From Escherichia coli (GTDB lineage Bacteria; Pseudomonadota; Gammaproteobacteria; Enterobacterales; Enterobacteriaceae), in the NCBI RefSeq assembly GCF_001677475.2, contig NZ_CP015229.1: a stretch of DNA of 64,000 bases; one strand, given 5' to 3'. Positions within the stretch are counted from its first letter, which is position 1; each line of letters starts with the position of its first letter. The notes beneath the pieces were generated by a model, which worked only from the letters and a program-made list of their open reading frames with translations, did not search any database and was not told the DNA's origin. Position numbers and translations under genes: made by a program. This document shows positions 8,406 through 8,538 of the stretch, piece by piece.

Positions 8406-8424
8406 TTGCAGCCTCTCATAATAA

Positions 8425-8440
8425 CTGTGATTTTATACAG
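8425..8440 (-). promoter_or_regulatory. LexA operator (SOS box) of yebG
   Basis: CTGTGATTTTATACAG = CTGT-N8-ACAG palindrome about 20 bp upstream of the yebG start. Confidence 0.8.
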
Positions 8441-8486
8441 TATATTTCTTTTTGGTTGGGAAATCAACATCAGCGATAAAGACACG

Positions 8487-8502
8487 CGCAAACGTTTTCG
8501 TT
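8487..8502 (+). promoter_or_regulatory. PurR operator of purT
   Basis: CGCAAACGTTTTCGTT matches the PurR box consensus (ACGCAAACGTTTTCNT), about 40 bp upstream of the purT ATG. Confidence 0.75.
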
Positions 8503-8538
8503 TATACTGCGCGCGGAATTAATCAGGGGATATTCGTT

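Follow-up and report, generated by a model that had tools for sequence, protein, structure and literature searches.

The closest described system to the locus studied here is the yebG-purT intergenic region of Escherichia coli K-12, on which a 1997 study by Lomba is reportedly among the publications. Belliveau et al. (2018) used Sort-Seq to dissect the yebG and purT promoters in both directions (PMC6003448). For yebG, only LexA and RNA polymerase (RNAP) features were seen, and the promoter was induced by mitomycin C. For purT, −35 and −10 elements were found with a repressor site between them that appeared in the presence of adenine. This site matches the PurR matrix, captured PurR together with hypoxanthine in DNA affinity chromatography, and was lost when purR was deleted. 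By its title, the figure distinguishes “directional regulatory features”, and the underlying reporters were plasmid-borne and read in a single direction; according to the authors, the mutagenized region exceeded the part that was plotted, and plots were given only where regulation was apparent (PMC6003448).

Genome-wide studies are available for both genes. Cho et al. (2011) list the K-12 purT site, ACGCAAACGTTTTCGT, in a PurR ChIP-chip table, with a ratio of 1.02 without adenine versus 2.00 with adenine, and report that adenine and PurR repress purT (PMC3159470). For yebG, an SOS box is listed in PMC3009722, which also gives a “yebG, yebF” transcript and places yebF fully under the control of LexA. 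A study that used AZT reported a 4.4-fold increase of yebG with 9.7-fold lexA dependence, and a heterology index of 6.3 for the yebG box, which is mid-range; in the same data the purine genes as a group tend downward, and purT is named only among the pur operons as SspA-dependent (PMC11228462). Over 260 conditions, yebG biclusters with recA, sulA, umuD and other LexA targets (PMC4576408), while purT is a hub with other pur genes (PMC9501238) and is absent from the SOS gene tables of PMC3009722 and PMC11228462. The SOS membership of yebG extends to Vibrionaceae (PMC3323433), and Salmonella yebG has an SOS box 17 bp from the ATG, the same as the one described below (PMC8072944). No cross-regulation of yebG and purT is reported in these Sort-Seq, ChIP-chip and SOS transcriptome studies.

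Two other pairs of divergent genes offer parallels. At ilvY/ilvC, the divergent promoters are coupled through supercoiling, and the coupling has been demonstrated; as at yebG/purT, they are arranged back to back with a few tens of bp between them. At yebG/purT, in contrast, coupling is a theoretical possibility that is unsupported by the available data. The second pair, uvrA/ssb, is likewise divergent and has an SOS box within its common control region (PMC3323433). There, one operator influences both genes, whereas at yebG/purT there are two repressors, each confined to its own promoter.

Each of the two promoters also has relatives within its own regulon. In the classical SOS promoters of recA, sulA, umuDC and dinI, the LexA box lies on the −10 element or the start site, and its 20 bp form a palindrome in which CTGT and ACAG arms flank an AT-rich centre. 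The yebG promoter is built likewise; it has a single box and otherwise shows no material difference from this group. The PurR-controlled promoters of the pur regulon (purF, purL, purMN, purHD and others) carry a 16-bp palindrome with a central CG over the −35/−10 region and depend on a corepressor. The purT promoter shares these properties, but its operator sits exactly inside the 18-bp spacer and is among the best consensus matches of the regulon.

The window analysed here is a 64,000-nucleotide (64-kb) stretch of E. coli chromosome that is collinear with K-12 MG1655 1,922,342-1,987,860 at ~98% identity. The segment 7600-9800 matches 5,425 of 5,426 complete E. coli genomes at 95-99.3% identity, and the genes annotated under these matches are yebF, yebG, purT and kdgA/eda. 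The divergent gap between yebG and purT, predicted to be 133 bp long, occupies 8406-8538 and has exactly that length. Of its bases, 129/133 are identical to those of the K-12 region described in PMC3159470 and PMC6003448, with four SNPs at 8453, 8459, 8475 and 8486. It is the same locus, alike in promoter hexamers and layout; the LexA box is identical, whereas position 1 of the PurR 16-mer changes from A in K-12 to G here (8486). LexA controls yebG and PurR controls purT, a layout that is already known and published for E. coli K-12, and the region very probably consists of two independent simple-repression promoters placed back to back. The features on which this reading is based are listed in Table 1.

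Table 1. Genes, translation signals, promoter elements and operators of the yebG-purT region (window coordinates).
Feature	Position	Strand	Basis
yebF CDS	7692-8048	−	Annotation
yebG CDS, 96 aa, DNA damage-inducible protein YebG, PF07130	8115-8405	−	ORF list; RefSeq annotation of E. coli KV7 (99.3% identical) and of K-12; homologues all named YebG
yebG ribosome-binding site, GAGG on the − strand	8412-8415	−	Read from the sequence; block TGCAGCCTC conserved across 80 species
LexA operator (SOS box), 20-mer TACTGTATAAAATCACAGTT on the yebG strand	8423-8442		Pattern match and matrix score
Predicted yebG −10, TATACT, overlapping the right half of the LexA box	8439-8444	−	Promoter scan; same place in 64/81 sequences, one-base variants in the others
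Predicted yebG −35, TTGATT, 17-bp spacer	8462-8467	−	Promoter scan; TTG-initial hexamer there in 60/81 sequences
Gap between the back-to-back −35 hexamers, 11 bp	8468-8478		Promoter scan
Predicted purT −35, AAGACA	8479-8484	+	Promoter scan; AAGACA in 56/81 sequences
PurR operator, 16-mer GCGCAAACGTTTTCGT	8486-8501		Consensus match and matrix score
Predicted purT −10, TATACT, 18-bp spacer	8503-8508	+	Promoter scan; TATACT or TATAAT in 79/81 sequences
purT ribosome-binding site, AGGGGA	8525-8530	+	Read from the sequence; conserved in Escherichia, Citrobacter and Salmonella
purT CDS, 392 aa, formate-dependent GAR transformylase	8539-9717 (ATG 8539-8541)	+	ORF and annotation

The original prediction assigned to yebG a canonical LexA box of the form CTGT-N8-ACAG. 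Its core, CTGTGATTTTATACAG, lies at 8425-8440 (CTGT 8425-8428, ACAG 8437-8440), within a gamma-proteobacterial SOS palindrome with an AT-rich centre (consensus TACTGTATATATATACAGTA), and the box is identical to the K-12 yebG SOS box listed in PMC3009722. The pattern itself matches twice in the 64-kb window, versus 0.56 matches expected. For scoring, a LexA matrix was built from 17 boxes taken from Table 4 of PMC3009722, with the yebG site left out. Known boxes score between 8.7 and 29.3 bits by leave-one-out; the yebG site falls inside this range, where it ranks between dinI and sulA, and it is the best LexA match on both strands of the window. The exact score distribution gives p = 1.4e-8 per position, or ~0.1 expected sites per genome. 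The second-best LexA match in the window, CGCTGGATATCTATCCAGCA at 23687-23706 (21.3 bits), is the known ruvA SOS box, which stands ~50-70 bp upstream of ruvA and was one of the boxes used for training. The other CTGT-N8-ACAG match, CTGTTGACCATGACAG at 54070-54085, sits 15 bp upstream of motA; it was set aside as a chance occurrence, with a GC-rich spacer and a score below 12.9 bits on the LexA matrix.

For purT, a PurR box had been predicted, and the quoted string, CGCAAACGTTTTCG, was located at 8487-8500. The full 16-mer agrees at 15/16 positions with the consensus ACGCAAACGTTTTCGT, which is also the K-12 site, and forms a 16-bp ACGCAAACGTTTGCGT-like palindrome with the central CG at 8493-8494. 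A PurR matrix was built from 27 sites in Table 1 of PMC3159470, again leaving out the site in question. The purT operator scores higher than all known sites but one, inside the 7.6-23.4 bits that known sites reach by leave-one-out, and it is the best PurR match on both strands of the window (p = 6.5e-9 per position by the exact score distribution; ~0.1 expected per genome). The second-best PurR-like match, CGGAAACCGCTTGCGT at 48073-48088, scores 17.65 bits and lies within the tar coding sequence by K-12 collinearity (~1,971,157); it is probably a chance match.

A test of both sites against matrix-score thresholds left neither below threshold, with 22.85 bits for LexA and 23.06 bits for PurR, each the best score in the window. 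These scores bear on the reading that one or both motifs are functionless matches. Short palindromes do arise randomly, as the additional CTGT-N8-ACAG at 54070 and the 17.7-bit PurR-like match in tar illustrate, but at the scores of the two operators only 0.002 (LexA) and 0.0008 (PurR) sites are expected per 64 kb. Moreover, both sites are present in 80/80 species, fixed relative to the promoter hexamers, and there is direct experimental evidence for them in K-12 (PMC6003448, PMC3159470). The chance reading is refuted by the conservation and the published binding data, and the probability left to it is negligible. Sites, scores, positions relative to the hexamers and conservation were computed here, while binding and regulatory outcome come from the K-12 experiments, which concern a LexA box of the same sequence and a PurR box with A, not G, at 8486.

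The G form at 8486 scores ~23.0 bits versus 25.1 bits for the K-12 A form. Among the 5,426 complete E. coli genomes, G is found in 1,524 (~28%) and A in 3,857. These counts were obtained with 45-nt probes centred on 8486, for which the 28-nt exact word of megablast makes the two alleles mutually exclusive. The exact 45-mer of the window around the PurR box occurs in one genome only, that of strain KV7. The GCGC end that the G allele creates is also found in the bona fide purHD PurR site. Judged on these sequence comparisons, the G at 8486 is a common polymorphism that is probably neutral.

A consensus scan of 8300-8650 found exactly two sigma-70-like promoters, one on each strand, in the back-to-back arrangement of the original prediction. 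The LexA box overlaps the core promoter of yebG at the predicted −10. Two reports of the yebG RNAP site differ by 9 bp, and both placements overlap the LexA box (PMC6003448). On the other side, the 16-bp PurR box fills the 18-bp purT spacer with one spare base at each end. The two sites had been described as lying about 50 bp apart, which agrees with 46 bp from core to core, 43 bp from the LexA 20-mer to the PurR 16-mer and 61 bp from centre to centre. This closeness arises because two compact promoters, with −35 hexamers 11 bp apart, share a 133-bp gap.

Neither operator lies within or over the predicted core promoter hexamers of the opposite gene: the PurR 16-mer lies upstream of the yebG −35 at a distance of 18 bp, and the LexA 20-mer upstream of the purT −35 at a distance of 36 bp. 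The latter distance is relevant to the suggestion that a single LexA box represses both genes, which would make purT a hidden SOS gene. Divergent pairs served by one LexA site do exist, for example uvrA/ssb (PMC3323433), and the yebG box does lie within the common intergenic region. However, its centre is ~82 bp upstream of where purT is predicted to start, too far away for the core footprint of RNAP; the purT Sort-Seq data contain no LexA feature (PMC6003448); and purT is missing from SOS tables (PMC3009722, PMC11228462), with the pur genes tending down after AZT. A shared operator is accordingly very improbable on the published and positional evidence, and the reading of two separate operators, one for each gene, is preferred.

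Under the two-operator reading, a LexA dimer on the SOS box at 8423-8442 would cover the −10/start region of yebG and block RNAP. DNA damage would then trigger RecA-stimulated self-cleavage of LexA and free the promoter, and yebG would be transcribed, probably together with yebF. In the opposite direction, PurR with its corepressor, hypoxanthine or guanine, would bind the operator at 8486-8501 and, from its position in the purT spacer, would exclude RNAP when purines are plentiful. The transcription starts of both genes are predictions. A simple scan found no terminator-like or promoter-like site between yebG and yebF, in agreement with the joint transcript given in PMC3009722, and yebF is probably co-transcribed with yebG and hence also under the LexA operator. 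The same kind of scan found no terminator after purT.

Other regulatory elements were also sought in the region. A dependence on cAMP is said to have been noted for yebG. The gap between yebG and purT holds no credible CRP site; its best matches to TGTGA-N6-TCACA carry 3 mismatches, and matches with up to 3 mismatches number 195 in the window. A CRP site for yebG was rejected on these counts. A whole-window Rfam scan at the gathering threshold placed no structured RNA family in 8000-9000.

To follow the locus through evolution, a YebG protein alignment was used in one scan of a species-representative genome collection, which returned 80 loci from the Enterobacteriaceae and Erwinia (Escherichia, Citrobacter, Salmonella, Klebsiella, Raoultella, Kosakonia, Phytobacter, Buttiauxella, Cedecea, Superficieibacter, Franconibacter, Erwinia and others). 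Counts out of 81 refer to the window plus these 80 other species. In 80/80 loci, purT is divergent from yebG, and the gene is 76-97% identical to the purT of the window. The gap between the genes measures 127-144 bp in 79/80 loci and 261 bp in the remaining one. Every one of the 80 species has a LexA box (16.1-29.8 bits) at 12-19 bp from the ATG of yebG and a PurR box (20.5-25.2 bits) at 35-44 bp from that of purT. The blocks kept in the alignment are, for each gene, the ribosome-binding site, the −35 hexamer and the operator together with its −10 (LexA box for yebG, PurR box for purT); variation is tolerated in the yebG spacer, in the gap between the promoters and in the purT leader. The wider neighbourhood is syntenic as well, with yebE present in 78/80 loci, eda in 75/80 and yebF in only 56/80. 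The adjacency of yebG and purT was rejected as a sign of selection for linkage, given that the whole neighbourhood is syntenic. The 24/80 loci from which yebF is absent belong to Klebsiella, Buttiauxella, some Cedecea and others.

The distance between the operator centres is 59-62 bp in 74/81 sequences, 69-73 bp in 6 and 188 bp in one. The gap from −35 to −35 follows the same division: it measures 8-13 bp in 74 sequences, six others have 19-23 bp and a single one has 138 bp. All length changes between the operators across the 81 sequences are confined to this gap. The near-constant operator spacing is explained by what lies between the operators, namely two length-constrained spacers, two −35 hexamers and a short gap. 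The gap itself (8-13 bp) varies about as much as the two leaders (12-19 and 35-44 bp). In principle, the 59-62 bp spacing of the 74/81 sequences could also reflect a constraint beyond promoter geometry.

The seven sequences that depart from the common spacing show shifts of +8, +9, ~+11, +13 and +126 bp, and both modules are intact in every case. Escherichia whittamii and Escherichia sp. E1V33 carry a tandemly duplicated 8-bp unit (CAAGCAAT CAAGCAAT) between the −35 hexamers, which lengthens the distance between the operators from 61 to 69 bp. Klebsiella pneumoniae has 9 bp more between the operators than other Klebsiella, and Superficieibacter and a related MAG have roughly 9 to 13 bp more. 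In Klebsiella spallanzanii, a 127-bp palindromic insert stands exactly between the −35 hexamers and leaves operators and promoters intact. The insert, with ends TATACCCT...AGGGTATA, forms a long hairpin (-68 kcal/mol for a folded 140-nt stretch), and its core, we presume, resembles an ERIC element. Fixed helical phasing between the operators, which a protein-protein contact would call for, was not observed among the 7/81 variants, whose shifts are not whole turns of ~10.5 bp; the independent events are too few for statistics. As far as sequence comparison can tell, the variants fit independent modules, contrary to a face-of-helix contact between LexA and PurR.

The arrangement of the two promoters raises the question of conditional cross-talk, in which one promoter, by being occupied or by firing, affects the other, such that purine status tunes SOS-induced yebG or SOS tunes purT. 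Three routes can be envisaged: competition for the 11-bp inter-promoter DNA through alpha-CTD or UP-element contacts, DNA bending induced by PurR ~61 bp upstream of the predicted yebG start, or negative supercoils generated by divergent transcription. The dimensions of the locus are favourable to such effects, with −35 hexamers 11 bp apart, predicted starts ~83 bp apart and an operator spacing of 59-62 bp in 74/81 sequences. Supercoil coupling of divergent promoters is established elsewhere, for example at ilvY/ilvC. In addition, PurR is detectable at purT even without adenine, at a ChIP-chip ratio of 1.02 versus 2.00 (PMC3159470). However, Sort-Seq found regulation only at the RNAP and repressor sites of each promoter itself (PMC6003448), and after AZT yebG rises while the purine genes as a group tend to fall (PMC11228462). 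The natural variants argue in the same direction, with shifts of up to +126 bp that leave both modules intact and an inter-promoter gap about as variable in length as the two 5′ leaders. Taken together, these data make cross-talk unlikely.

If the 59-62 bp spacing and the 11-bp gap did reflect real coupling, for which the odds appear low, the opposite promoter would be modestly tuned. PurR-hypoxanthine ~61 bp upstream of the predicted yebG start, LexA ~82 bp upstream of the predicted purT start, or supercoiling might be responsible. Purine status would then determine how far yebG-yebF expression rises under SOS induction, or the influence would run the other way. The back-to-back promoters of the original prediction, and its assignment of an operator to each gene, are borne out by the present analysis. 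The question it raised from the closeness of the sites, whether SOS induction and purine status cross-talk, finds no support in favour of such cross-talk, given that each operator lies outside the other core promoter, the spacing is variable and the genes belong to separate regulons. From this geometry, the natural spacing variants and the separate regulon membership, we infer that the yebG and purT modules are functionally independent.

For E. coli K-12, the operators, the regulators and the binding-energy matrices are already published, and the finding at yebG/purT matters little in that respect. What the comparison adds is support from natural variation for separable modules, with both operators present throughout the 80 species and variation in length limited to the gap between the −35 hexamers. 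Were cross-talk true, the locus would be a modest example of promoter coupling that ties nucleotide supply to the DNA-damage response. It would be of interest to specialists in promoter architecture, and the understanding of either regulon would be unchanged.

Several observations were made elsewhere in the window. At 39446-39484, 39 bp replace ~770 bp of K-12 (1,961,799-1,962,568, yecV and yecT); the replacement includes a hairpin followed by a T-run, and the strain is without yecT. The region upstream of flhDC (55375-55418) is without IS1H, unlike that of K-12 MG1655; at the place where K-12 carries IS1, the two alignment blocks share 8 bp (55411-55418). A perfect CRP consensus (TGTGATGCAGATCACA) at 55375-55390, with flhD ~260 bp downstream, presumably represents the CRP site known for flhDC. 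Finally, Rfam matches above the gathering score were found at their K-12 positions for the overlapping antisense pair RyeA/SdsR (758-902), for MicL (36088-36395, within or after cutC) and for C0465 (49654-49731, between tar and cheW).
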